Shown here: positions 1,219-13,803 of the stretch, one piece after another
How the letters are laid out: every line of letters begins with the position of its first letter
Position numbering within the stretch: position 1 is the first letter of the stretch
IMG/VR virus record: IMGVR_UViG_3300009152_000158
Location: 1 to 29,017 of that record
Strand: one strand, 5' to 3'
DNA from: a virus
Taxonomy: Duplodnaviria; Caudoviricetes
Length of the DNA stretch: 29,017 nt
The notes under the pieces: generated by a model
Database searches by the model: none
What the model saw: only the letters and a program-made list of their open reading frames with translations
What the model was told of the DNA's origin: nothing
Position numbers and translations under genes: made by a program

Positions 1219-3966
1219 ATGTCAACAGTAAGAATTCAAGTAAGAAGAGGCACAGCAGCAGAGTGGACCTCAGTAAATCCTACTCTAGCAGCAGGAGAAA
1301 TGGGTGTTGAAACAGACACTCGTAAGTTAAAAATTGGAACTGGCAACACAGCATGGACTAGTCTTTCATACATAGCCTCTGACTCGCCAGCCATTACCGA
1401 AATTGCACAAGATGCAATTGATCAAGCTCTTTCAATGGGCTCAGGTCTTGCAAAGTCTTACAATGACGGTACAAATACAATTTCTATTACAGTTGATACA
1501 AATGTTATTGCCACAAATTCATACGTAGATAACGCAGTTGGCGGATTACAAAATACAGTAACATCTGATTATGTTCTACTAGCAGATGTAGGAAATGCAG
1601 GCGGGCCTGCAAAGCTAGACGTAGACGGAAACCTACTAGTTCCAAAGTCAAGCATCATATTAGAAGGCGCAACAGCAGATGCTTTTGAAACCACACTTAG
1701 AGTAACAGACCCAACAGCAGATAGAACCATCACATTCCCTGATGCAACTACAACAGTTGTTGGAACAGATACAGCACAAACTTTATCAAACAAAACTCTA
1801 ACTACTCCAACAATTAATGGAGGAGAGATTACTGCTACTGGTGGAACTCCACGTATTCATGGTATTTACCTTCCAGATGCACACTTTATTACTTTTGAAG
1901 GCACAACAAACAATGAATTTGAAACAGTATTGGAAGCTGGGGACCCAACAGCAGACCGCACAGTTACTTTGCCAAATGCTTCAGGTACACTAGCCTTAAC
2001 TTCATATGTAGACAACGCAGTTTCTGGTCTAGTCGACTCAGCACCAGCAACACTTAACACTTTAAATGAGCTTGCAGAAGCGCTAGGAGATAATCCTAAT
2101 TATGCAACAACCATAACAACTATACTAGGAACTATGTCACAAGCTGGATCAGATCACGCTGCAGCATCAACAAGCGTTCACGGAATTGCTAACACAGCAG
2201 ACTTAATGTTAAAGTCTGGCTCAACAATGACTGGACGATTAACTTTAAGTAGTGGCCCAGAAAATAATTTACACGCAGCTACTAAGAAGTATGTAGATGA
2301 CAATGATTCATTACATGCAGGTTTAAATCTAAACGTTCACGGAATTTCTAATACACAAGACTTAGTGTACAAGTCTGGCTCAACAATGACTGGACCATTA
2401 GTGCTTAGTGGAAATCCAGTAAGCAATCTAGAATCAGCAACAAAGCAATATGTTGATGCTCAAATTGATAATACAGAGATTTATGCAGACGACTCTGCAG
2501 ATGCAGCAGTACTAGCGCACACAGCAATAGTTCAGAATGTGCATGGAATTGCTGACACATCACTTCTAGCAACAAAGTCATACGCTGATACAGCAGAAGC
2601 AGACGCAATTACAGCAGCAGGAACAGCAGCAGATACAAAGATTGCAAATGCAGTTGCAGCACTTACAAAATCTTCAGTAGGCCTTGCAAATGTTGATAAT
2701 ACTTCAGATGCTAATAAGCCAGTCTCATCAGCAACCCAAACAGCACTTGATCTTAAACTTGCTTCAGCAACTGCAGCATCAACCTATGCACCAATTGCAA
2801 GCCCAACATTTACTGGTACTGTCTCAGGTATTACAAAGAGCATGGTTGGTCTTGGAAACGTAGATAACACTACAGATGCAAACAAGCCCATCTCTACAGC
2901 AACACAAACAGAACTTGATTTAAAACTTGCCTCTGCAACAGCATCTTCTACATACGCACCCTTGGCTAACCCAACTTTCACAGGAACAGTTTCTGGTGTA
3001 ACAAAGTCACACGTTGGTCTTGGAAACGTAGACAACACAGCAGATGCATCAAAGCCAGTTTCAACAGCACAGGCAACAGCAATAGCAACTGCTAAGTCAG
3101 AAGCAATCGCAGATGCAACCTCACAGGTTACAGCAGTCATTAATGGTGCACCAGCAGCATTTGACACTTTGAAAGAAATTGCAGACTATATTGCAACAGA
3201 TCAGACTGCTGCATCAGCAGTTACATCATCACTTGCACTAAAGGCACCACTTGCTTCACCAACTTTCACAGGAACTGTCTCAGGTATTACAAAGAGCATG
3301 GTTGGACTTGGATCTGTAGACAACACAGCAGACTCAGCAAAGCCAGTATCAACTGCTACACAAACAGCACTTGACCTTAAACTTGCTTCTGCAACAGCAG
3401 CAACAACTTATGCACCACTTGCTTCACCAACATTTACAGGAACAGTCTCAGGCGTAACTAAGTCTCACGTAGGGCTAGGAAACGTTGACAATACATCAGA
3501 TGCAAATAAACCAGTCTCAACCGCTGCTCAAACTGCCCTTGACCTTAAACTTGCTTCTGCAACAGCAGCAACAACTTATGCACCACTTGCTTCACCAACA
3601 TTTACTGGTACAGTAACAGTTGCAGCATCAGGTGTAGCATTTACTGATGGAACTCAAACAAAAGCTGGTGTTCCTTCAATTACTAACATTCCAACTGCAA
3701 TTGAAGCAGGAGCAATCACACTTGCATCAGGACAGGCAGATCAGTTTATTCCGCTAACTGGAGCGGTAGTAATTACTCTACCATCATCAGGATATTCAAC
3801 TGGACAATCAATTGATTTCTACCAAGAATCATCTACAGGAGCACGTTTTGAATCAACTAATGGAGTTGTTGGTACACCAGGACTTAAATTTAGATCAACA
3901 AACTCAGTAGTAACAGCAATGAAAACTCCAAGCGGTTGGTTAGTTTTCGGAGATCTTTTAGCTTAA
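1219..3966 (+). CDS. Long tail fibre protein with Mtd_N/hyaluronidase-N-like anchor and internal repeats (915 aa)
   Basis: N-terminus RIQVRRGTAAEWTSVNPTLAAGEMGVETDTRKLKIGTG resembles the major tropism determinant N-terminal domain. It also has APATLNTLNELAEALG, duplicated DPTADRT and HGI...ATKxYVD motifs, and five VGLxxVDNT repeats. Confidence 0.85.
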   Translation: MSTVRIQVRRGTAAEWTSVNPTLAAGEMGVETDTRKLKIGTGNTAWTSLSYIASDSPAITEIAQDAIDQALSMGSGLAKSYNDGTNTISITVDTNVIATNSYVDNAVGGLQNTVTSDYVLLADVGNAGGPAKLDVDGNLLVPKSSIILEGATADAFETTLRVTDPTADRTITFPDATTTVVGTDTAQTLSNKTLTTPTINGGEITATGGTPRIHGIYLPDAHFITFEGTTNNEFETVLEAGDPTADRTVTLPNASGTLALTSYVDNAVSGLVDSAPATLNTLNELAEALGDNPNYATTITTILGTMSQAGSDHAAASTSVHGIANTADLMLKSGSTMTGRLTLSSGPENNLHAATKKYVDDNDSLHAGLNLNVHGISNTQDLVYKSGSTMTGPLVLSGNPVSNLESATKQYVDAQIDNTEIYADDSADAAVLAHTAIVQNVHGIADTSLLATKSYADTAEADAITAAGTAADTKIANAVAALTKSSVGLANVDNTSDANKPVSSATQTALDLKLASATAASTYAPIASPTFTGTVSGITKSMVGLGNVDNTTDANKPISTATQTELDLKLASATASSTYAPLANPTFTGTVSGVTKSHVGLGNVDNTADASKPVSTAQATAIATAKSEAIADATSQVTAVINGAPAAFDTLKEIADYIATDQTAASAVTSSLALKAPLASPTFTGTVSGITKSMVGLGSVDNTADSAKPVSTATQTALDLKLASATAATTYAPLASPTFTGTVSGVTKSHVGLGNVDNTSDANKPVSTAAQTALDLKLASATAATTYAPLASPTFTGTVTVAASGVAFTDGTQTKAGVPSITNIPTAIEAGAITLASGQADQFIPLTGAVVITLPSSGYSTGQSIDFYQESSTGARFESTNGVVGTPGLKFRSTNSVVTAMKTPSGWLVFGDLLA
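2665..3620 (+). repeat. 56-aa (168-nt) tail-fibre repeat, 5 copies
   Basis: TKSxVGLxxVDNT units start at 2665, 2833, 3001, 3289 and 3457. A 68-nt exact DNA duplication lies at 3370-3437 and 3538-3605. Confidence 0.9.
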
Positions 3967-3990: not shown

Positions 3991-5322
3991 ATGTCAAAAC
4001 AAGCAGGTAGAATGAGCCAATCGGCTAATGACTTTTTAGAGCCAAAAAAACCAACGGTTACATCAATAACAGATGTTGGAACTGATAGACCGTTTGGAAA
4101 TGGAGCACTTACTGTTTCATTTACTTTACCAGCAGATTCTCCTGCAGCAACTTCTTTTACGGTATCAGGATTTTGTAGTGTACATAACACAACTCACACA
4201 GCAACTGGATCGTCATCGCCGATAACAGTATCTGGTTTTGAATCAAACACAACATCACCAATTACTGTAGTTGCAATTAACGCTGCAGGCTCTTCACCAG
4301 TGTCAGATGAAGTTACTTCACCGCTTATTACAACAGTTCCTCAAACACCAAATGCTCCAAGTGTTTCAAATAATGGGCAGGAAAATAACTATGTAACTTG
4401 GTCATCAACCTCTAATGGAGGAAAAGATATCACTGGATACTTTATTATTGATCATGAAAGTGACTACTACTCATACAACTCAAGCACATTTGCAGCAAAT
4501 ATTAGTGAAAATTCAAATGAAAACTTTTCTGTAAGAGTAAGAGCTCAAAACGGAAACGGATTCTCAGCGTACAGTGGTAGTTCAAATACGATTACTACAA
4601 CACCATTTAGCTTTAGCCCATTCGGGTTTACACCATTTGGTTTCACACCATTTGGATTTACTCCGTTTGGATTCACGCCATTTGGATTTACCCCATTTGG
4701 ATTCACCCCATTTGGTTTTACACCGTTTGGATTCACACCTAAGTCCGTAGGAGCAGAAACAATTATTAAGTCTAAGGTGCCAGAAGGATTAATTCTAGCT
4801 CACAACTTGAGCGTAGGAGATGTTCTTTATTCTGCAAATATTGAAGGCATCGATGTTTCAAATACAGCAATAATAGAATATTTACAAAATTGGTCTTCAA
4901 ATAGCGCAAATATATCTCAGGATGCAGAAACAACTATTGTTGCAATGGCAGCAAGAGTTTCGTCAGATGGCGCTGTAGTTATTAATGGAAATAAATATTC
5001 AAAACAGCACTTTGTGCTAATTAAAAGAAATGAAGAAATTCAGTTCTGCCCAGCAGCAGATGTTTTGGAAACAGATTTAATATTTTCTCCAATGGAGTCA
5101 GGATGGGTAGAAGTTGTTGATTATAAGGTAACAGACCAAAGGGAATTGTTGATTTCAATTGACGTTGAGCCATATGATGTATACTTTACAGATAACGCAT
5201 TAGTTCATGACTCTTATAGAGCTACCGACGATCCAAATGCACTCTTGTCCAGCGACGAAACATTTACAGACAAGCTAGATGCAATGTACCAACAATGGAG
5301 AGATTCTCAAGACCAACAGTAG
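3991..5322 (+). CDS. FN3-FN3-(FGFTP)n-Hint domain protein (443 aa); putative self-processing virion surface protein and modification substrate
   Basis: Two FN3-like domains (LTVSFTLP...VVAINAAGSS; VTWSSTSNGGKDITGY...VRAQNGNGFSAYS) are followed by a pentapeptide repeat and Hint-like motifs (SVGAETII...LSVGDVLYS; SKQH; IDVEPYDVYFTDNALVHD). SD GAGGAG lies upstream. Confidence 0.85.
   Translation: MSKQAGRMSQSANDFLEPKKPTVTSITDVGTDRPFGNGALTVSFTLPADSPAATSFTVSGFCSVHNTTHTATGSSSPITVSGFESNTTSPITVVAINAAGSSPVSDEVTSPLITTVPQTPNAPSVSNNGQENNYVTWSSTSNGGKDITGYFIIDHESDYYSYNSSTFAANISENSNENFSVRVRAQNGNGFSAYSGSSNTITTTPFSFSPFGFTPFGFTPFGFTPFGFTPFGFTPFGFTPFGFTPFGFTPKSVGAETIIKSKVPEGLILAHNLSVGDVLYSANIEGIDVSNTAIIEYLQNWSSNSANISQDAETTIVAMAARVSSDGAVVINGNKYSKQHFVLIKRNEEIQFCPAADVLETDLIFSPMESGWVEVVDYKVTDQRELLISIDVEPYDVYFTDNALVHDSYRATDDPNALLSSDETFTDKLDAMYQQWRDSQDQQ
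4600..4740 (+). repeat. 15-nt / 5-aa tandem repeat TPFSF-SPFGF-(TPFGF)x7-TP
   Basis: 4621-4740 encodes eight consecutive perfect FGFTP units, each with a different codon combination. Confidence 0.97.
4744..5211 (+). other. Hint (Hedgehog/intein) autoprocessing domain, about 156 aa, no homing endonuclease
   Basis: Block A-like S252-VGAETIIKSKVPEGLILAHNLSVGDVLYS, block B-like S337xxH340, and block F/G-like ISIDVEPYDVYFTDNALVH406-D407, followed by S408. Confidence 0.8.
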
Positions 5323-5334
5323 TCAGGATTTAAT

Positions 5335-5982
5335 TTGTTCAAACAATTAAAGAAACTGCGCCTAATGGGGCTTTCTGGTGTAAAATATTTTAAGGGTAAA
5401 CCAATTCCTAAATTTAGGAAGTACCCAGAGTATATTAAAGGAACCTGGTCTCAATATACCGTTTTTATGGACAGAGGCAATCACTTAGCAATAGAGTGTT
5501 TGTATAAAGATGATAATAATGAATCTGGAACAATGGTTATGTCCAACTTTATTAATAACGATTACCCTGTTTCTTGGGCAACAATTATTATAGACGGATA
5601 TGATAAAGACCATTACACTGCAATAACAGATAGATACTACACAAACCCATTAAGTAGAAGAAAAAAATATCTAGAGTCATTGTCACTAATAGGATATCCA
5701 GTTTGGTGCACATTTTTTAACATATTGCCAAGGCTAGGACCAGGATATACTGAGGGCACACAAAAGATGGCCTTGAGCGGTTTAACAATGATCTCGTCAG
5801 CAGCTAAAAAAAGAATAATTTTAAATAGCGACAAAGCAGAAAAAGTTGTAAAGGGAGGCATTGTTGAAGGAGAAGTTCCCGCTATAAATATGCCAGAAGA
5901 TCTAGCGGTATACAAAGATCCAGTATTCCCAGCATTATTTCACTCTATGAGCATTTGGGAGCCAAATGATAAAAAATATTAA
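5335..5982 (+). CDS. Hypothetical protein, weakly GNAT-like (215 aa; TTG start uncertain, ATG 5365 alternative)
   Basis: First gene of the coupled cassette. DRYYTNPLSRRKKY loosely resembles GNAT motif A but lacks its glycines. Confidence 0.6.
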   Translation: MFKQLKKLRLMGLSGVKYFKGKPIPKFRKYPEYIKGTWSQYTVFMDRGNHLAIECLYKDDNNESGTMVMSNFINNDYPVSWATIIIDGYDKDHYTAITDRYYTNPLSRRKKYLESLSLIGYPVWCTFFNILPRLGPGYTEGTQKMALSGLTMISSAAKKRIILNSDKAEKVVKGGIVEGEVPAINMPEDLAVYKDPVFPALFHSMSIWEPNDKKY

Positions 5983-6529
5983 ATCAATCAAAAATAACAT
6001 GATGATTTCAGATTACAATAGAATGGTTTCTGAGATGTACGAGCATGTGTACAAATTTAGCCCAGGATTAAAACTTGGATTTAAGCCCAAAAAAGTCTCT
6101 TTAGTAGATTACAAAACATTTAATTTTTTTTCAATGTATAACAAGAATATACATACTTTGTACAAAGAAATTAGTCAAGCAACAAAAGATTTATGTAAAG
6201 AAAATAATATTAACTTTGAAAGAAATTGTTTTTATCTTCTAGGAAACATTGTTAAAAATGAAAAATTGCCAATAGGGACATATATCAATTTTGCTCCAAA
6301 TTACAAAACAACTTTTATGGGGCTATATATAATTAATTCAGATAATGATAAAATGTATCTAGAAGATAAATTAATTGAATTGGAGGCTGGGCAACTAATT
6401 ATGGTAAACTCCTCCTCAAAAATTTTATTTGAAAATATAAGCGACAATCTAATAATTTTGTCATTTAATATTTCCCCAATCGAGTATCTTTATAAGCAAT
6501 ACTATCAAAAATGGATACCAATTTTATGA
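5966..6529 (+). CDS. Degenerate 2OG-Fe(II) oxygenase-fold protein (paralogue of 8704..9348 lacking metal ligands)
   Basis: FNFFSMYNKNIHTLYKEISQATKDLC..INF aligns with YNVFQFYHESIHKLYKSISDTIKEAC..INF, and the C-termini QKWIPIL and QHWIPLL match. There is no HxD/H motif. Confidence 0.65.
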   Translation: MIKNIKSIKNNMMISDYNRMVSEMYEHVYKFSPGLKLGFKPKKVSLVDYKTFNFFSMYNKNIHTLYKEISQATKDLCKENNINFERNCFYLLGNIVKNEKLPIGTYINFAPNYKTTFMGLYIINSDNDKMYLEDKLIELEAGQLIMVNSSSKILFENISDNLIILSFNISPIEYLYKQYYQKWIPIL

Positions 6530-7242
6530 TTAAAATAGAGTTTGTTCCCAAGTACAGACTGTACAGCAAAGTTTTCCCAGAGCCAGTAAGTGTTGCATCA
6601 GCAATACCAGAGTGGTGGAAAACACAAGAAAGTCATTTGAATAATGATCAAAATGTGTATAGTGGAACAATGATGCTCACAGTAAAGAAGTGTCAATCAG
6701 TATTTGATGCTATGACATTTGGATATTACTTAAAATGCCCAGCAGACATATCAATAGATGCGACAGGAGAAAATCTGCAGGTTCAGCTGACCGCAGACAT
6801 AATGGGAATGCAGCAACATCTTGTTGCTAACCATTTAAAAGAACAGATGGCCAAGTATCCAATACCAGACTACTTTCACCCAGAGGTTGTAAGAATACAT
6901 CCAATGTGGCTGGTTCAAACAGAGGCGGGACACAGCTCTTTATTTGTCGCTCCAATGCACGGAGAGGATTCTCCAATTAAAGCGGTCCCAGGAGTCATAG
7001 ACACAGACGAATATCCGTCAGATGGATACTTATCCTTTTTTGTAAAAAAGGGATTTAAAGGAATAATTAAACAGGGTACTCCAATTATTCAAGTAATTCC
7101 TTTTAAAAGAGATGATTGGGAAAGTTCTATTAATAAAGAAAAAGACTCTGACTTTAAGATAAAAGAAAAAAATTTAGGAGTAAGGTCAGTTTTTCAAAAT
7201 GGATATAGAATGAAGTTTTGGAAAAAGAAAACCTATAAATGA
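6526..7242 (+). CDS. DUF6065-like / dUTPase-fold-like beta protein (start more likely ATG 6526 than 6511)
   Basis: Motifs IPEWWK, TVKKCQSVFDAMTFGY, PGVIDTD and IIKQGTPIIQVIPFKRDDW. ATGA overlap with the upstream stop. Confidence 0.65.
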   Translation: MIKIEFVPKYRLYSKVFPEPVSVASAIPEWWKTQESHLNNDQNVYSGTMMLTVKKCQSVFDAMTFGYYLKCPADISIDATGENLQVQLTADIMGMQQHLVANHLKEQMAKYPIPDYFHPEVVRIHPMWLVQTEAGHSSLFVAPMHGEDSPIKAVPGVIDTDEYPSDGYLSFFVKKGFKGIIKQGTPIIQVIPFKRDDWESSINKEKDSDFKIKEKNLGVRSVFQNGYRMKFWKKKTYK

Positions 7243-7970
7243 GCGCTAAAGTAATTAACAGGGTTCCATTCGAGTCAGAATCTTGGGGTTTAATGTCTAA
7301 TATTAGCTTTGAAGAAATAGTTAACTTCTCTAATCTTTTGCCAAAATGGAAAAATTGGTCGTATGTAAAAAGTAATAGTCTATATAAGCAATCAATACTT
7401 AAGCCAGTAAACATGTATGTTGCTAATTTCTCAGAGCCTCCTGAGATCATAAAAATTTCAGACACACAGGTTTATTTGAGATATACAAATTACGCAGACA
7501 TACTGATACAGGTAGCCGATCCAATGATGGGTCACAAAGGAATATTTAAATCTAATCCAATAAACAGCTTACTCTACGCTACAGATAAATGCTGGCTAAG
7601 ACAGTTTTATCCATCTGCAAATGTATACAATATAGATAAAAAGAATCCGATGTCAGATAGAGTTTTTAAAATGTTTATACCTTGGTTTTTAGATATGGAC
7701 ATAAAGTATACAGTTGAAACAAATAAAGAAAATTCTTCTATTGTAGTCATAAAAAAAGAAGATTGTTTTACAAAAACAAATGAAGGTGTTATAATAAAAG
7801 AGGCCAATTTTGTTGATTTTTATTTTACAAAATCTGATGTGCATATGGAAGACAACATATGTGGCTTAATAAAAAGAGGGTCCTACTTATTTGATATACA
7901 AATAGAGGCTGATAGAAAAACAATTAAAAGAATTATAGGGGAGTATGAGAAAAAAAGAACTAAAGGTTAA
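7239..7970 (+). CDS. Hypothetical protein, possibly a divergent member of the same DUF6065-like family
   Basis: ATGA overlap. C-terminal GLIKRGSYLFDI resembles GIIKQGTPIIQV and GIIPKGTPIFQM of its neighbours. Confidence 0.6.
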   Translation: MSAKVINRVPFESESWGLMSNISFEEIVNFSNLLPKWKNWSYVKSNSLYKQSILKPVNMYVANFSEPPEIIKISDTQVYLRYTNYADILIQVADPMMGHKGIFKSNPINSLLYATDKCWLRQFYPSANVYNIDKKNPMSDRVFKMFIPWFLDMDIKYTVETNKENSSIVVIKKEDCFTKTNEGVIIKEANFVDFYFTKSDVHMEDNICGLIKRGSYLFDIQIEADRKTIKRIIGEYEKKRTKG

Positions 7971-8703
7971 GTTCTCCCCAGCATTTGTCACAGATATAAA
8001 TAGCTTAACAGACTATAGTAATTTTAATGAGCCACAAGAATCAAAAAGATATATCCCCTCTTGGTACAAGAAGCTATCTAAATTTCATAAATCAAACAGC
8101 ATCAGCAAGCTCTACCCAGTAAATGATAGAGGCACAGATGGAAGCGCAGCCTCAACAAAATTATGTATGCCATTTTTTGACGCATTGACTTCTGGGTACA
8201 TGTACACACTAGATTACGATCTCCATGTAAGCCAAGATAAGAGTGGCTTCCCAGTACTTTCCTGGGAGGGTGACAATATGATAGTGGATAAGAGATTAAT
8301 GATAGATGTCCCAGTGCCCACCCAACATCATCCAATGCATTATGGGTGGAAGGTTAACTGGTACTCAGAGACGCCAAAAGGGTATTCTTTATTAATAACA
8401 CACCCGCTAAATAGGCATGATTTGCCATTTACCACAATGAGCGGGATTATAGACTCAGATTTATGGCACACCCCAGTATTTACATCCTTCTTCCTAAAAC
8501 GCAACTTTATTGGTATAATACCTAAAGGAACTCCTATATTTCAAATGATTCCTATTAAAAGAGAAGAGTGGTCTCTTGAAATAGATTATTCAAATGAAAA
8601 TATAGAGCAAAACCAGATCAAGGATGAAAAAAGAAGATCTTTAATATATGCATATTATAAAAATATAATATGGCAACGTAAACAATATAGAGGGAAAATA
8701 TAA
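7945..8703 (+). CDS. DUF6065-like / dUTPase-fold-like beta protein (paralogue of 6526..7242)
   Basis: Motifs IPSWYK, TKLCMPFFDALTSGY, TPKGYSLLITHPLNR, SGIIDSD and IIPKGTPIFQMIPIKREEW. Confidence 0.7.
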   Translation: MRKKELKVKFSPAFVTDINSLTDYSNFNEPQESKRYIPSWYKKLSKFHKSNSISKLYPVNDRGTDGSAASTKLCMPFFDALTSGYMYTLDYDLHVSQDKSGFPVLSWEGDNMIVDKRLMIDVPVPTQHHPMHYGWKVNWYSETPKGYSLLITHPLNRHDLPFTTMSGIIDSDLWHTPVFTSFFLKRNFIGIIPKGTPIFQMIPIKREEWSLEIDYSNENIEQNQIKDEKRRSLIYAYYKNIIWQRKQYRGKI

Positions 8704-9348
8704 ATGGAAAATATGTATATGAATAAACCAACAGGTAAAGAGCATAAGTTTTTTGAAAGGTACCTGGACAATGACTTGCCAGAGCTTGCGGAGTTTTTAC
8801 AGAATCAATATTCTAATATAGAAAACCTTAAGCTATCTGGTGTAACAAAGGTTACACCAAGAGACAACTGGCTGTCTTCTGACAGCGTGTCTACAATCAA
8901 ATGGAGAGAATACAATGTATTTCAGTTTTATCATGAATCAATACATAAGCTATATAAAAGCATATCAGATACGATTAAAGAGGCGTGTGAATACTATGAA
9001 ATTAATTTTGATGAACAAAGATACATGGTTCAGGGTTGGTTTAATATTAATTACAACCATAGTGGTAAGCTTGATTGGCATGATCATGGTGGCCCATATG
9101 CCCCCTATTTTCACGGTTACTATTCAGTAAATGCAGAGCCTTCAACTACATACTATAGCGTTTTTGGGAATCAAGTAGATAACCATAACAAAAACAATAG
9201 AATGATTATTTCGGAAATGGGACACCCACATGCAATGGGAGACTGGGATTGGGAAGGACCTAGAGTGACTATTGCTTATGACATAATGCCTCTAAAAAGT
9301 TTAATTGCAAATAGAGCAGAACCACAACACTGGATACCATTGCTGTGA
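8704..9348 (+). CDS. Putative 2OG-Fe(II) oxygenase (DSBH fold)
   Basis: Motifs GWFNINY, WHDH (HxH), FHGYYSV, distal HPH and RVTIAYDI (2OG-binding Arg). Confidence 0.75.
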   Translation: MENMYMNKPTGKEHKFFERYLDNDLPELAEFLQNQYSNIENLKLSGVTKVTPRDNWLSSDSVSTIKWREYNVFQFYHESIHKLYKSISDTIKEACEYYEINFDEQRYMVQGWFNINYNHSGKLDWHDHGGPYAPYFHGYYSVNAEPSTTYYSVFGNQVDNHNKNNRMIISEMGHPHAMGDWDWEGPRVTIAYDIMPLKSLIANRAEPQHWIPLL

Positions 9349-10163
9349 CAAGTAATATAGGGATCTGCATATACTCATATCAAAACAAAAAGCTATTAGA
9401 CTTGATAGAAGAGATAAAAGAAAAGTCTAGTAAGAAGAACATGTTGTATTTCTATGTCATAGATCAAAATAATTTGGACAGGACAAGAAGTTTTTCCGAA
9501 CCAGATTTCTATCAATCTATTTCTTACAATTATGTAAAATGGGATTCAATTAAAAGCCCAATTGAGTATAAACAGCAAGCCTTAAATATTTTAAACAAAA
9601 CATATTATATGCAGGCTGGAGATGATTTAAACTTAATACAAAATTGGGATGAGTATGCAATCAATTTTATATCAAAAAATAAAAATTCAATTATAACTGG
9701 AAACTCCACAGTCTCTTTATCTAATAAAAACTGGTTTCAATTAGAATCCACCAGAACACCATCAAAAAAATTTAATGAAATAAATTATATAGATAGAAAT
9801 TTTTTATTTGGTCTTACTGAAGATTTTAAAAAGATAGACTATCCTAAGTATTTAAAATACAATGGAGAAGAAGAGGCCATTTCAATAGATATGTTAAATA
9901 ACGGAATAAAGATGTACAACTTCCCAGATGAATACTTATTAATAAATAGATCTAATATAGAAGAAGAATATGTGCCATTTTCTTTAAACCATAATTATAA
10001 TAAATTTGTTAATTTATATAAAGATGAGGTTAAAAAGAATTTTGGTTTGGATATAGAAGAATTTCCATTTGAAGACAACGATGTCTCATACGACCCAGCG
10101 CAATCTCAAACTGATAAAATTGGTGGGTTAAGATACATTAATAAAGTTAAGGAGCTTAGATAA
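9345..10163 (+). CDS. GT-A glycosyltransferase, GT60 (Skp1-hydroxyproline GlcNAc transferase)-like, divergent
   Basis: Motifs ICIYSYQN, YFYVIDQ, YYMQAGDD...NWD, NFLFG and YNGEEEAIS..L.NG...Y occur in the order recalled for GT60 (IASYRD, YLQIDSH..F...WD, F.GEE..S). Confidence 0.6.
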   Translation: MTSNIGICIYSYQNKKLLDLIEEIKEKSSKKNMLYFYVIDQNNLDRTRSFSEPDFYQSISYNYVKWDSIKSPIEYKQQALNILNKTYYMQAGDDLNLIQNWDEYAINFISKNKNSIITGNSTVSLSNKNWFQLESTRTPSKKFNEINYIDRNFLFGLTEDFKKIDYPKYLKYNGEEEAISIDMLNNGIKMYNFPDEYLLINRSNIEEEYVPFSLNHNYNKFVNLYKDEVKKNFGLDIEEFPFEDNDVSYDPAQSQTDKIGGLRYINKVKELR

Positions 10164-10705
10164 TGTTAATAAAAATAGTAGAAAACTTTATAACAGAAGA
10201 AGACGCAAATGTTCTAATCAACGAGATGAGGAGACCCTCAGAAATAAATGAGTACCCATCTTACTACAAGGACAGAAATGGTGGAACTGCCTTGCCTTAC
10301 AACAAAACAGTTATGTCATTATTAAAAAAATATGCATTACATGCAAATAGCATACAGAAAAAATTTTTTGACTTAGAAAAAGATGTAATTATTACAAAAG
10401 CTTTTGGATCTTTTTGGAATCCTGGTCAAAGCGGGGCACCACACATTGATGCAATAGAAAAAGAACCTTTTATTGAGTATAGTACTGTAATATATTTAAA
10501 CGACGAGTATGAAGGTGGAGAGATTTATTTTCCAAAACAATCCTTTGAACACAGACCAAATAAGTACTCAGCAATATTTTTTCCAGGTAACAGCTTGAGC
10601 TATATACATGGAGTAAAAGAAATAACAAGTGGTAATAGATTTACAGCTCTTTATATGCAGTCTACAAAAAAAGAGTTCATGGATCCAGATTTTGAGGGGT
10701 GCTAA
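10163..10705 (+). CDS. Prolyl 4-hydroxylase-like 2OG-Fe(II) oxygenase
   Basis: Motifs PHID (HxD), VIYLNDEYEGGEIYFP and HGVKEITSGNRF (distal His and Arg). Confidence 0.88.
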   Translation: MLIKIVENFITEEDANVLINEMRRPSEINEYPSYYKDRNGGTALPYNKTVMSLLKKYALHANSIQKKFFDLEKDVIITKAFGSFWNPGQSGAPHIDAIEKEPFIEYSTVIYLNDEYEGGEIYFPKQSFEHRPNKYSAIFFPGNSLSYIHGVKEITSGNRFTALYMQSTKKEFMDPDFEGC

Positions 10706-11359
10706 ATGAATTACGAAGAGTTAGCCCTAGGAGCCGTTTATTATAAAAATATAATAGACAACCCAGCAGATTTAATTAACAAAATAGAAGACTTAGAGGA
10801 GAAAAGAAGCAACGCTGATTCCTATAGATCTGAGTCTGTGAAGCCATGGCAGGCATGGGACTATGACCATGGCAATAAAGAAAAAACAGTTTTCTGTTGG
10901 CAAAAGTTTTTACCAAAGCCAGAAGACATTCAAAAAACAGATTTGTTTTATGAAGAACAATTTGAAATATCCTCAACTCTTTTTAATGGATTAGAGAAAG
11001 GACTCAAGCACTATTTTTCACTATACCCATACGCAGAAAAAAATATTAAATCTAGAGAAAAAACAATGCACGTTTTAAAATATAAAGAAAGTGGATTCCT
11101 TCCAGCGCATTCTGACCATGGAATAAGCAGTAGGGTTTTGTCTGCTCTTTTGTATTTAAATGATGACTATGAAGGTGGAAATATTAGATTCCCTCACGCA
11201 GGAATAGACATGAAACCAGAAGCTGGAAGCCTATTATTTTTTCCTTCAAATTTTGTATATGTTCATGAAGTAGATGCCGTAACAAGCGGAACAAGATACT
11301 CTTTGCCAAATTGGTATCACAATAGAAAAAATGCTTACTACTCGGACGGAACAGAGTAG
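10706..11359 (+). CDS. Prolyl 4-hydroxylase-like 2OG-Fe(II) oxygenase
   Basis: Motifs AHSD (HxD), LLYLNDDYEGGNIRFP, KPEAGSLLFFPS and HEVDAVTSGTRYS. Confidence 0.9.
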   Translation: MNYEELALGAVYYKNIIDNPADLINKIEDLEEKRSNADSYRSESVKPWQAWDYDHGNKEKTVFCWQKFLPKPEDIQKTDLFYEEQFEISSTLFNGLEKGLKHYFSLYPYAEKNIKSREKTMHVLKYKESGFLPAHSDHGISSRVLSALLYLNDDYEGGNIRFPHAGIDMKPEAGSLLFFPSNFVYVHEVDAVTSGTRYSLPNWYHNRKNAYYSDGTE

Positions 11360-12048
11360 TGTTTATTGTTACAGGGTCAAGTAAAGGAATTGGAAATGCT
11401 ATAGCAAATAGGCTTTTAAAAAATGGACATGAGGTGTGCGGAATATCAAGAAGCTTACCAGAAGGAAATTCTCTTTTTAAAACATATTTAGCAGATGTTT
11501 CAGACAAAAAATCTTTAATAGAAATTGCAAATACATTGAAGTCTGAAAAGATAACAGTCGATGGTCTAATAAATTGCGCTGGCGTTATGCAAAAGCCTTT
11601 TATGGACTGGTCAAGAATTCAAGAAGAGGAACTCCAGTCAATCTTTTTAACAAACGTTATTGGCACAATAAATGCATGTCAATCCTTTATCCCACTAATG
11701 AATATTAGAAAGCACACCCCAGTCATAAACATATCTAGTCTTTCTGCCCATGCAAATACAGAACTTTCTGTTTATGGATCAAGCAAGCATGCAGTTAAAG
11801 GCTTTACTAGCTCTTTGGCAAAAATCTTGCAGGCCACATCTATAAGGCCCAACTGCATTGCACCAGGCCCAATTAAAACAGAAATGACAAGTATGCTCTC
11901 AGATGACATGCTTAAAATGTTTGCTTCCCCACAAATTATAAACAGTAAAGTTTTTACTTCTGAGGATATATGCGACATAGTTGAGCTATTAATAGATAAT
12001 AGGTCAAACAGTTTAACTGGACAGACATTTCACGTAGGCGGGCACTAA
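11359..12048 (+). CDS. Classical short-chain dehydrogenase/reductase (FabG-like)
   Basis: Motifs TGSSKGIG, NCAG, NISS, YGSSK (YxxxK), PGPIKTEM and LTGQTFHVGG. GTG start overlaps the upstream TAG. Confidence 0.92.
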   Translation: MFIVTGSSKGIGNAIANRLLKNGHEVCGISRSLPEGNSLFKTYLADVSDKKSLIEIANTLKSEKITVDGLINCAGVMQKPFMDWSRIQEEELQSIFLTNVIGTINACQSFIPLMNIRKHTPVINISSLSAHANTELSVYGSSKHAVKGFTSSLAKILQATSIRPNCIAPGPIKTEMTSMLSDDMLKMFASPQIINSKVFTSEDICDIVELLIDNRSNSLTGQTFHVGGH

Positions 12049-12057
12049 CCCACAAAA

Positions 12058-12066
12058 TGGTATAAT
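12058..12066 (+). promoter_or_regulatory. Extended -10 promoter, probably leaderless transcript
   Basis: TGGTATAAT ends 6 nt before ATG 12073; no SD. Confidence 0.65.
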
Positions 12067-12072
12067 TTTTAA

Positions 12073-13803
12073 ATGTCATACTACTACAAAGTTCTTAAAG
12101 ATAGCCCAATTGGTTTTTGGAAGCTAGACGATAACACTACGACAGCAATAGATTATTCTGGCTGTCAAAATAATGGATCCTATTTGGGCGCACAGGATAA
12201 AAAAAATCCAATTGTTAGTGGCAGTTTGTATTCTTCAAAAATAACATCTTCTTCTAGTATTGTATTGTCATTAAATAAAGATTACTACGGACAGACAGCA
12301 AAGGGTGGATTTGCAAATATTAATGACGGAGACAATGATTTTTCAATAGAGTGCTGGGTATTGCCACAAATAGAAACAAACAACCTTACTCCCATAGTTG
12401 CGGACAAAGAAAAAAATATAGGAATTTTTTGGGACAAGGGTAATATATTGTTTGGGCTAGGAACTGACTACCTAGAGTATTCAGTGCCAGATTTTAATAA
12501 ATCTTTGCACATAGTCTGTACTTATAGCGTAAACAAAGCATTTATTTATGTAGATGGAGTTCTTTGTGTTAGTAAAACAATAGAATCTAATCCATTTACA
12601 AATACATCGATCTTATTAAAGTCTGGACCAACAGAAAATGCACTTGATAAATTTTTAATTAACAACATTGCAATTTATAGATACGGTCTACCTGAAAGAC
12701 AGATACACTCTCACTATATCAATAACAACAAAATAACTCCGATACAGATATCCTACCCAGAAAACGGAGAAATATTTTATATATATGACAACGGAATGAG
12801 AAAATCTTTTTCATTTACATATCCTAAAGATAAGTCCTGGGAGTATTTTTTAAATGAAGACATTACTTTAAATAGGCAGGAAAACTATATAGAGCTATCA
12901 AGAACAGAAACCCAGCAATTAAAAGAAGTTATTTTAAATGACATAATCTCAATGCCTTCTGGAATCTCAATGGACTCCTCAAAAATATCATGGGCTGGCA
13001 ATAATGGAGTTAGAGTCTATACAAGCCTAGATGATGTAACTTACCTAGAGTGTAAAAATGGAGAATCTATCCCACAATTTAAGCTCTCAGGATTTAGTAG
13101 TCAAAAATTCTTTTATTTAAAAATTATACTAAGATCTACAGACTCATCAAAATATTTGCCAAAGCTACACAACCTAGAAATTAATTTCTACAGTAATCAA
13201 ATACTATATTCTAAAAATGGAGGCAGCTATATTTCAAAAATTGACAATCTTGATTCAAATTTTGGACAAGAAGCGTATCCTATTTTAAGTAATAATAGCT
13301 TAAATGGAATATTAGTTGATTCTGACTCTGGGTTCAAATTAAACACATTGAGGTCAATTTCTACTATAGAGTTTTTCTATACCCCAAGCACCGTATCAAG
13401 TGGTTCCCTTATTTCAGCGATTGGAACGAATCTGACTTGGGATAGCAATAACTCTATTTATAAAAACAATATATCTGGACTATATGTAAATGGAGTTGAC
13501 AGAACATCCGAATCCCAAATGTCCAATATATTTAAGCCAAAAGACTTGCACCATGTGGTAATCACCCTCACCTCCCCAGTAACCGAAGAAATTATTTTTA
13601 ATTGGAAGACAGGTGGGTCTGAGAAATCACTATATCAATACATAACAATATATCCATATACTATGCAACTGAATATAATTAAAGAGCATTATGCTATATA
13701 TATGGGGCAGTCAGGATACCAGTCTAGCGGATCAACACTTAGGCTGTCAGAAAATACAGTAAATGTATATAATAACGACTGGGTTGTGCTACAAAACTCA
13801 TAA
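12073..13803 (+). CDS. LamG/concanavalin-A-like lectin domain virion protein (576 aa)
   Basis: Motifs VLKDSPIGFWKLDD, FSIECWV, HIVCTYS...IYVDG and IAIYRYGL...I.SHY. A second partial LamG-like region lies at the C-terminus (TIEFFY, LYVNG, HHVVIT). Confidence 0.75.
   Translation: MSYYYKVLKDSPIGFWKLDDNTTTAIDYSGCQNNGSYLGAQDKKNPIVSGSLYSSKITSSSSIVLSLNKDYYGQTAKGGFANINDGDNDFSIECWVLPQIETNNLTPIVADKEKNIGIFWDKGNILFGLGTDYLEYSVPDFNKSLHIVCTYSVNKAFIYVDGVLCVSKTIESNPFTNTSILLKSGPTENALDKFLINNIAIYRYGLPERQIHSHYINNNKITPIQISYPENGEIFYIYDNGMRKSFSFTYPKDKSWEYFLNEDITLNRQENYIELSRTETQQLKEVILNDIISMPSGISMDSSKISWAGNNGVRVYTSLDDVTYLECKNGESIPQFKLSGFSSQKFFYLKIILRSTDSSKYLPKLHNLEINFYSNQILYSKNGGSYISKIDNLDSNFGQEAYPILSNNSLNGILVDSDSGFKLNTLRSISTIEFFYTPSTVSSGSLISAIGTNLTWDSNNSIYKNNISGLYVNGVDRTSESQMSNIFKPKDLHHVVITLTSPVTEEIIFNWKTGGSEKSLYQYITIYPYTMQLNIIKEHYAIYMGQSGYQSSGSTLRLSENTVNVYNNDWVVLQNS

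Follow-up and report, generated by a model that had tools for sequence, protein, structure and literature searches.

The window analysed here, a 29-kb record of an uncultured tailed phage (IMG/VR IMGVR_UViG_3300009152_000158, positions 1 to 29,017; all long open reading frames (ORFs) on the plus strand), carries within its tail-fibre gene block the gene for a 443-aa protein with two FN3 domains, an aromatic (FGFTP)8 repeat and an atypical Hint domain, directly followed by a cassette of ten genes (g2 to g11; Table 1). Judged by their intact iron-binding motifs, three of these (g7, g9 and g10) are predicted to be catalytic 2-oxoglutarate (2OG)-Fe(II) oxygenases. Cassette make-up tracks the repeat sequence in related phages, indicating that the oxygenases likely modify the repeat. 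The reading that we favour, with moderate confidence, is that they hydroxylate the repeat of a predicted virion appendage, which would be capped by the Hint domain and then released from it. As an association, the link between repeat and oxygenases has good support; as a relation of substrate to enzyme, its support is moderate.

The layout proposed in an earlier note on this DNA was borne out: the two FN3 domains, the eight repeat units and the Hint domain lie within 3991-5322, and after 12 nt come ten abutting or overlapping genes (successive junctions of -17, -19, -4, -26, 0, -4, -1, 0 and -1 nt) that stop at 12048. Pfam fn3 matched two stretches of the protein (E 8.6e-7), the best PDB match was a titin FN3 domain, and the AlphaFold2 confidence score (pLDDT) of this part is about 90-98. 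The repeat consists of exactly eight FGFTP units (aa 211-250, nt 4621-4740) preceded by one FSFSP. All eight units are distinct as DNA, and 78 of the 78 pairwise differences fall at codon position 3, with none at positions 1-2, indicating selection on the repeat at the protein level. In 10,000 shuffles of the protein, FGFTP never occurred more than once. The region aa 207-250 has a pLDDT <50, so the repeat alone has no confident structure. At least 337 homologues were found among 8000 scored candidates, and copy number in relatives ranges from about 2 to >20 units; no cultured phage among 50,697 records carries the full FN3-repeat-Hint protein. The Hint part matches phrog_38766 ('virion structural protein', E 1e-8), and the ORF comes after a tail-fibre-like Mtd_N protein, which by synteny usually sits immediately before the repeat gene in relatives as well. 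The repeat protein is likely a component of a virion appendage.

To follow repeat and enzymes across phages, we used a sample chosen without regard to either, consisting of 80 loci retrieved via a portal alignment, of which the 38 reaching 9 kb or more upstream were kept (some of them near-duplicates). Repeat/Hint and at least two oxygenases occurred together in 21 of these loci, neither in 13, the repeat alone in none, and oxygenases alone in four. On extension, three of the last four had the repeat just upstream, and in the fourth the contig ends. The association check suggested in the earlier note thus came out positive, repeat and enzymes being present or absent together. Two of the 13 loci scored as having neither carry, farther upstream, Hint proteins with NPGP-rich or YNN-rich repeats, then g2 and oxygenase-like genes. 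A second sample was fetched with the FN3-repeat-Hint protein itself (73 viral loci; best 80 of 114 matches kept). Here the main repeat gene nearly always preceded a gene of the g2, g4, g7 or prolyl 4-hydroxylase (P4H) type. Wherever g2 occurred (32/32), the next gene was a ligand-less g3-type or F70 gene.

L290 (9371 onward) and L294 (6414 onward) add repeat classes built on the same plan: Hint proteins with NPGP-rich and YNN/YSN-rich repeats, then g2, g3-like and P4H-like genes. Many genomes also encode, upstream, a second repeat(-Hint) protein on another N-terminal body (L018:2967-5801, L004:4157-5239, L299:2016-4898, L305:2269-4926, L158:18553-19032); its repeat mostly resembles the main one and differs in L300 and L305 (FPT/FPS). 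At L128:2329-3640, repeat and Hint lie in different frames owing to a frameshift inside the repeat, reflecting either an assembly error or slippage.

Enzyme content was compared with repeat sequence in 86 complete cassettes, which remained after duplicates had been removed from 131 closed rows (of 164); L067-L069, second-copy repeat genes and loci truncated at a contig end were excluded. The three repeat classes are all at least one-third aromatic, a property for which the detector selects. Cassettes with Pro-Pro repeats (GFFAPP, FFPPYFPP, PPHFPPFF) have five to seven P4H-like genes and neither g7 nor g8 (19/19). Those with FxF[T/S]P repeats have 0-4 P4H-like genes, with g7 in 45/57 and g8 in 32/57. 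Next to Pro-poor (FGA)n repeats, neither an active oxygenase nor g8 was present (10/10). The single complete genome with a Pro-Pro repeat has no g7 and no close g8 genome-wide, and g7 is present in all nine near-complete genomes examined. The Spearman correlation between Pro fraction and P4H number is 0.92, a raw value that we do not take as proof, since kin share both traits. On the portal tree, the FGFTP clade of the window is sister to the Pro-Pro loci, indicating that repeat and cassette were exchanged together.

Several observations weigh against the repeat as the substrate. Corrected for the portal tree, Pro-Pro repeats and at least five P4H-like genes gave two independent pairs, both concordant (p 0.5, not significant), and FxFTP repeats and g7 gave seven pairs (3.3 same, 0 opposite, 3.7 no difference). 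The FN3 tree gave p 0.06-0.125, again not significant; no pair in any of these tests was opposite, and none reached p 0.05 at the median. Adjacent genes that move as one recombination block would produce the same pattern. Of the co-variation raised in the earlier note, the tracking of repeat class by enzyme content was therefore found (19/19, 45/57, 10/10) and its significance after tree correction was not. Moreover, 11 of the 57 FxFTP-type cassettes lack an adjacent active oxygenase, L067-L069 have a repeat-Hint gene with no enzyme behind it, second-copy repeat genes are likewise without adjacent enzymes, and further P4H-like genes lie elsewhere in the genomes of these phages. In the reverse test, anchored on g4 and on the portal, 24 of the 80 loci fetched with a g4 alignment have g5-g4-g6 (mostly with g8 and a P4H-like gene) without a repeat gene nearby, in a setting of a putative carbamoyltransferase, a kinase and sugar genes (named by inspection). 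Genomes G042 and G043 carry Pro-poor repeats (that of G043 has a single Pro unit and lacks Thr); of the enzyme-like genes, g4 alone adjoins these repeats, and each genome has a g5-g4-g7-g8-P4H-P4H module at another site. Homologues of g4 in cultured viruses also occur with no such repeat nearby, namely in haloviruses (between thymidylate synthase and the tail block) and in S-RIM4 after the ribonucleotide reductase (RNR) gene. Finally, the P4H of chlorovirus PBCV-1 hydroxylates Pro-rich peptides in vitro, and no hydroxyproline was found in its virions (PMC7019647).

A Hint profile search of the 24 displaced-module records, most of which are fragments, gave 0/24. We dropped this result as a refutation of the repeat link, as two complete genomes have Hint-less repeat genes with g7 neighbours: in both complete displaced-module genomes, a Hint-less FN3-repeat gene lies elsewhere, with two or three g7 genes and a P4H-like gene behind it. 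Searching for the repeat by a DNA pattern failed on two of four control genomes, and the pattern was not used.

These results bear on a second reading, in which the cassette would be a general island for virion or surface modification whose enzymes act on other fibres, glycans or small molecules, the repeat being linked to them by one recombining block. In its favour, g5-g4-g6/g7-g8-P4H-P4H moves as a unit to sites near putative carbamoyltransferase, APS-kinase-like and sugar genes, the module is present in G042 and G043 despite their Pro-poor repeats, the tree tests are not significant, and Iyer et al. read the related Syn9 array as secondary-metabolite biosynthesis (PMC2938197). We nevertheless regard this reading as rather unlikely: the portal sample has no repeat without oxygenases and 13 loci without both, P4H number keeps pace with Pro content over several distinct Pro-Pro repeat types, g7 genes may remain beside the repeat when the module moves, and unrelated NPGP-rich and YNN-rich repeats on Hint proteins again precede oxygenase-like genes. 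What does not survive is the fixed, dedicated ten-gene operon of the earlier note: cassettes range from 1 to 12 genes, the exact gene order of the window recurs in 6/86, and a sub-module lies elsewhere in 24 of the 80 g4-anchored loci and in two further genomes. The ten genes are hence not one dedicated unit, because g4-type modules occur away from the repeat.

The displaced g5-g4-g6/g7-g8-P4H module adjoins a protein of about 475 aa resembling the NodU/CmcH carbamoyltransferases by inspection (L134:12223-13728, L138:10899-12344, L192, L193), and RsmI-like methylase and APS-kinase-like genes are also near it. Together with the carbamoyltransferase-like gene, it may define a separate hydroxylate-then-carbamoylate pathway. 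In haloarchaeal tailed viruses (49 of the 50 records matched), a DUF6065-like gene is conserved between thymidylate synthase and the tail block (L074:5893-6783, L078:5893-6762); it is annotated as hypothetical and has, by homology to g4, a dUTPase-type fold.

The claim that the window encodes three intact 2OG-Fe(II) oxygenases and one dead paralogue agrees with the motif analysis. The iron ligands are kept in g7, g9 and g10, and g3 lacks both the iron-binding histidines and the 2OG-binding Arg. For g7, the Atlas gave a score of 0.96 to a cluster that is 79% PF13759, and the H-x-H...H and Arg motifs are present in 42/54 family members; none of the 54 matches the Pfam PF13759 model directly. The HxD...H and R/K motifs are kept in 45/45 P4H-like proteins checked by profile alignment, and hhalign found no similarity between the g3/g7 and g9/g10 profiles. 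The profile of g9/g10 is nearest to peptidyl-prolyl hydroxylases (E 3e-14), with Tet-like proteins (4e-4) and AlkBH8 (1e-3) far behind. This ranking, ten orders of magnitude nearer to peptide hydroxylases than to Tet/AlkB, argues against a role of the cassette on nucleotides or DNA, in which dUTPase-fold enzymes, oxygenases, glycosyltransferase and short-chain dehydrogenase (SDR) would form a base-modification pathway. We consider such a pathway quite improbable, since the g4/g6 family also lacks the RSG and C-terminal glycine-rich motifs of dUTPases, and the cassette is missing at this site in 13 close relatives and varies with a protein repeat. Its attractions are the dUTPase fold of g4, the g4 homologues adjoining thymidylate synthase, polymerase or RNR genes in cultured viruses, the class II RNR that comes after the cassette in many relatives, and a weak Tet_JBP match of g10 (E 0.004).

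The fold of g4 was modelled with pLDDT 88.7, and its best structural match is the dUTPase 3h6x (Z 10.3, rmsd 3.2, 120 aligned); the top 22 rows of the fold search are all dUTPases, dCTP deaminases or dUTPase-derived viral proteins. Trimeric dUTPases have the catalytic motifs RSG, G-x-I-D-x-D-Y and a C-terminal Gly-rich loop. Judged against these motifs by eye, g4 and g6 keep G-[VI]-I-D-[TS]-D, and RSG and the Gly-rich loop are missing; the model thus suggests a dUTPase fold devoid of most dUTPase catalytic motifs. The two or three DUF6065-like proteins of the earlier note are accordingly g4 and g6, with g5 a doubtful third and a distant paralogue at best (hhalign against the g4/g6 profile E 0.0032, probability 10%). 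The g2 protein appears only weakly GNAT-like: one of eight relatives matched the GNAT profile (E 0.014, below the cut-off), and an R-x-x-G-x-G-like loop in three distant relatives is replaced by RRKKY in the window. Single-sequence scans of Pfam, PHROG and NCBIfam returned nothing for g2, g3, g5, g7 and g8, and PDB profile searches with g2, g3/g7, g4/g6 and g8 gave chance matches only. As predicted, g11 is an SDR with both TGxxxGxG and YxxxK; such a gene occurs in 21/86 cassettes.

Four of the ten cassette genes look degenerate, catalytic motifs being lost or altered in g2, g3, g5 and g8. The g4-type gene is the most constant neighbour of the repeat (74/86, counts that are biased upward because part of the 86 cassettes was fetched with g4) and in many cassettes the only intact gene. 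Both features would suit an explanation in which the neighbouring genes chiefly serve folding or assembly, with DUF6065 trimers and pseudo-enzymes binding an aggregation-prone Phe repeat and oxidation being incidental. It would also fit that the repeat alone has no confident fold and that pp71 and ORF10, viral proteins in which we take the dUTPase fold to be used non-enzymatically, are among the fold matches of g4. We find this explanation unlikely, given that g7, g9, g10 and 45/45 P4H-like proteins have full catalytic motifs, with the oxygenase genes amplified to up to seven copies, and that 12/86 cassettes have no g4-type gene.

The window protein by itself matches no Pfam Hint model. A profile of 32 family members matched PDB entries of the gp41-1 intein (E 1.2e-7), 9hth (E 1.9e-7) and the bacterial intein-like (BIL) domain 2lwy (E 5.3e-7), and relatives with Cys1 and a His-Asn-Lys-stop end, which are canonical BIL-like, match Pfam Hint-clan models weakly and align with the window form. 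The AlphaFold2 model is all-beta with pLDDT mostly 80-89. Ser252 at position 1 and S-K-Q-H340 in block B (Ser for Thr) are nearly invariant in 60 homologues, and Asp396 is invariant in the family alignment. From these comparisons, we regard membership in the Hint superfamily as real, though the domain is atypical in its Ser1 and His-Asp end. A block-F Asp and a C-terminal His-Asn are needed for canonical Hint splicing. Counting against an active Hint domain, in the alignment with 9hth Ser389 takes the place of the block-F Asp, and the domain ends in His406-Asp407-Ser408 rather than His-Asn. Canonical splicing is unlikely because of Ser1, Ser389 and this end; N-terminal cleavage appears possible.

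That Hint cleavage exposes the repeat, as the earlier note proposed, gains support from Hint-less relatives, because they end as a released Hint would leave the chain. Such genes make up 14 of the 86 cassettes (15 were scored, minus the L128 frameshift) and stop at or within about 20 residues after the repeat, e.g., in ...FNFTPR or ...PPGFWD. The cleavage itself we infer. Some Hint-less repeat proteins have short Cys-rich tails (e.g., CRPPCSAPYFCYNGSCIY; L093:3511-4686, L097:3992-5047, L118:2-466, L235:1100-1636, L283:1-657, L291:16900-17817). A small F44 gene often comes after their genes; L093 and L097 additionally have a gene of the F87 family, whose L037 member matches PF05118 (Asp/Asn beta-hydroxylase).

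The earlier note had further proposed that the repeat is glycosylated. The assignment of g8 as GT60-like holds through its relatives: 5 of 15 match PF11397, three of them above the cut-off (best E 8.6e-7), and the window protein itself does not match. Where canonical phage GT60-like proteins have I-D-S-H, it has A-G-D-D, at a position that is variable across the g8 family, so the canonical metal-binding DxH motif is missing. Glycosylation of the repeat is thus not supported, as g8 has lost DxH; with its altered metal motif, a transfer by g8 is possible and on balance doubtful. The same holds for a released product related to ribosomally synthesized and post-translationally modified peptides (RiPPs), because the repeat remains attached to the two FN3 domains and Pfam, PHROG and NCBIfam detect no peptidase or transporter among the ten genes. 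An array of RiPP-like cores, cut into modified pentapeptides and released, would resemble the window in its short repeated core beside tailoring-type enzymes and in a copy number of about 2 to >20 units; we judge it very improbable, since the repeat is joined to an FN3 or other fibre-like body within the tail block, its units follow one another with neither spacers nor cleavage motifs, and neither of those two kinds of gene is in the cassette. Of the overall interpretation put forward earlier, the repeat-oxygenase link is retained, and the dedicated operon, the glycosylation and the released RiPP are not.

In the favoured reading, that of repeat hydroxylation, the FN3-repeat protein would be made with the tail-fibre genes and enter the virion via its N-terminal FN3 part. 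The P4H-like g9 and g10 would hydroxylate Pro, and g7 would oxidise a further residue, Phe or Thr, within the F-x-F-[T/S]-P unit. The Hint domain would cap the sticky repeat during synthesis and then leave after an N-O acyl shift at Lys251-Ser252, so that the mature chain would end in ...FGFTPK. The dUTPase-fold proteins and the ligand-less g2, g3 and g8 would be mainly scaffolds or repeat-binding helpers, and the decorated repeat would serve adhesion or surface protection. More tentatively, a large family of aquatic phages might build a programmable, decorated peptide polymer on the virion from interchangeable aromatic repeat classes, a Ser/Asp Hint mask and class-matched oxygenases (Pro-, Phe- and Thr-directed), with possible glycosylation or Hint-ester ligation, as an adhesive or protective hair; the oxygenase arrays so far counted as auxiliary metabolic genes, that of Syn9 among them, would then be virion-tailoring enzymes.

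The closest described system is the array of Synechococcus phage Syn9 (gp41-gp54), with ten dioxygenases and a dUTPase-fold Cys protein, proposed to act in secondary-metabolite synthesis (Iyer et al. 2010, PMC2938197). Among 17 Syn9 proteins, the window profiles match gp43 (g4/g6, E 2.9e-18), gp47 (g3/g7, E 6.9e-10) and gp50 (g9/g10, E 7.1e-6), and the g7-type profile also matches gp48; we infer that gp43 is the dUTPase-fold protein of Iyer et al. Both systems combine tandem unrelated 2OG-Fe(II) oxygenases with a dUTPase-fold protein that has a conserved Cys. Unlike the Syn9 array, the ten genes include no tryptophan halogenase or JmjC member detectable with Pfam, PHROGs and NCBIfam, and they have a GT60-like gene, an SDR and a GNAT-like gene instead; the parts of PMC2938197 consulted name no repeat or Hint substrate. 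The Syn9 array stands directly after two Gly/His/Asn-rich tail-fibre-type genes, gp38 and gp39 (L310:344-2328; array 6055-13145), which are candidate substrates in a cultured phage; gp39 looks frameshifted or mis-assembled.

In bacteria, hydroxylase-sulfotransferase operons are predicted to modify co-encoded collagen-like or tail-collar proteins (PMC2938197). As in the window, a low-complexity or fibre-type protein is co-encoded with 2OG-Fe(II) hydroxylases and a second-step transferase. The bacterial repeats are Gly-X-Y, whereas those described here are Phe-rich, Hint-capped, situated in a phage tail block and accompanied by repeat-matched enzymes; both cases are predictions. The Hint domain resembles BIL and Hedgehog-type Hint domains (PDB 2lwy; gp41-1 intein 6riz) in its C-terminal placement, position-1 nucleophile, block-B His and penultimate His, and differs in Ser1, Ser at the block-F Asp position, Asp at the block-F His position and the His-Asp end. 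Gp112 of Erwinia phage Alexandra (L075:6909-8351) combines collagen G-X-Y repeats with a homologous canonical Cys...His-Asn Hint in a virion gene block; this Hint is missing from the annotation, and no oxygenase is annotated within 8 kb.

The Skp1 pathway of Dictyostelium couples a prolyl 4-hydroxylase to GT60. P4H-like genes likewise adjoin a GT60-related gene in the window, except that g8 is without DxH; unlike the P4Hs of Skp1 and PBCV-1, those of the window use Arg for 2-oxoglutarate binding, and the candidate substrate is a phage repeat. Freeman and colleagues reportedly described in 2023 that mycobacteriophage glycosyltransferases glycosylate the phages' own virion proteins. That system shares phage enzymes acting on own virion proteins; it is not known to include oxygenases, a repeat substrate or a Hint domain, and its glycosyltransferase families are others.

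Phage 2OG-Fe(II) oxygenase genes have been read as auxiliary metabolic genes, with 24 copies in one cyanophage and functions 'not specifically investigated' (PMC9602691), or treated as auxiliary metabolic genes of untested function (PMC9599517). No description of an aromatic repeat-Hint system was found in the literature searched, which covered few subscription papers and not the supplements of PMC2938197. Given the homology to Syn9, the aromatic repeat-Hint protein with matched oxygenases is a variant of a substrate logic that is itself only predicted so far (Iyer et al. 2010). Phage oxygenase clusters, puzzling and widespread, would thereby gain a named candidate substrate. The repeat classes and their matched enzyme sets form a natural series, and for a test of the idea three small enzymes and one short peptide suffice. 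Should the hydroxylation reading be true, many phage oxygenase genes would shift from host metabolism to virion modification, Hint chemistry would gain a Ser/Asp variant, and new sequence-specific peptide hydroxylases would become available. The system is real, widespread and unusually testable; its reading as a dedicated ten-gene glycosylation or RiPP system is too strong.

Table 1. Features of the repeat protein, the gene cassette and its flanks in the window.
Feature	Position	Strand	Basis
Tail-fibre-like protein, Mtd_N domain, 168-nt repeats	1219..3966	+	Pfam PF18454 E 5.4e-16; PHROG tail fibre / minor tail matches
FN3-FN3-repeat-Hint protein, 443 aa, candidate substrate	3991..5322	+	ORF; Pfam fn3; PDB profile matches; AlphaFold2
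Two FN3 domains, about aa 18-204	4042..4602	+	Pfam fn3; PDB FN3 matches; beta-sandwich strands in model
Aromatic repeat P-FSFSP-(FGFTP)8, aa 205-250	4603..4740	+	Sequence; no confident fold
Atypical Hint domain: Ser252 (position 1), SKQH with His340, Ser389, Asp396, His406-Asp407	4744..5211	+	Profile matches to inteins/BIL; family alignments; Pfam Hint-clan matches in Cys-type relatives
C-terminal tail after Hint, Ser408 onward, 36 aa, predicted helix 426-442	5212..5322	+	Alignment, model
g2: possible GNAT-fold protein	5335..5982	+	Weak profile match in relatives; loop alignment
g3: g7 paralogue, predicted pseudo-oxygenase	5966..6529	+	Clusters with g7; motif table
g4: DUF6065-like, dUTPase fold, invariant Cys61; Syn9 gp43 homologue	6511..7242	+	Pfam E 8.5e-4, below cut-off; Atlas; model
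g5: probable diverged DUF6065 paralogue	7239..7970	+	hhalign to g4/g6 profile
g6: second DUF6065-like protein	7945..8703	+	phrog_7084 E 1.5e-37; alignment
g7: 2OG-Fe(II) oxygenase, PF13759 type, H-x-H...H and Arg; Syn9 gp47 homologue	8704..9348	+	Atlas; motifs; Syn9 profile match
g8: GT60-related, G-D-D in place of D-S-H	9345..10163	+	PF11397 in relatives; alignment with canonical GT60-like phage proteins
g9: prolyl-hydroxylase-like 2OG-Fe(II) oxygenase (H-I-D...H...R)	10163..10705	+	PHROG, PDB profile, motifs
g10: prolyl-hydroxylase-like 2OG-Fe(II) oxygenase (H135, D137, H187, R197)	10706..11359	+	Pfam PF13640 E 4.2e-16, above cut-off; PDB profile, motifs
g11: classical SDR (TGSSKGIG, Y139-x3-K)	11359..12048	+	Pfam adh_short E 2e-38
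LamG/lectin-domain protein, closes cassette	12073..13803	+	Pfam PF13385 E 4.5e-9; synteny

Beyond the LamG/lectin-domain gene, the genes from 14203 on read, by inspection only, as portal, prohead protease, major capsid, major tail and tape measure. Promoter and terminator scans of the window were at chance level (50 vs 52.7 and 7 vs 7.8, respectively). The GC content of the cassette (5335-12048) is 0.28-0.36, below that of the upstream fibre genes (0.38-0.44). The upstream tail-fibre-like protein carries 168-nt (56-aa) tandem repeats at 2683-3069 and 3244-3614, and its length differs widely across relatives (about 420-1200 aa).

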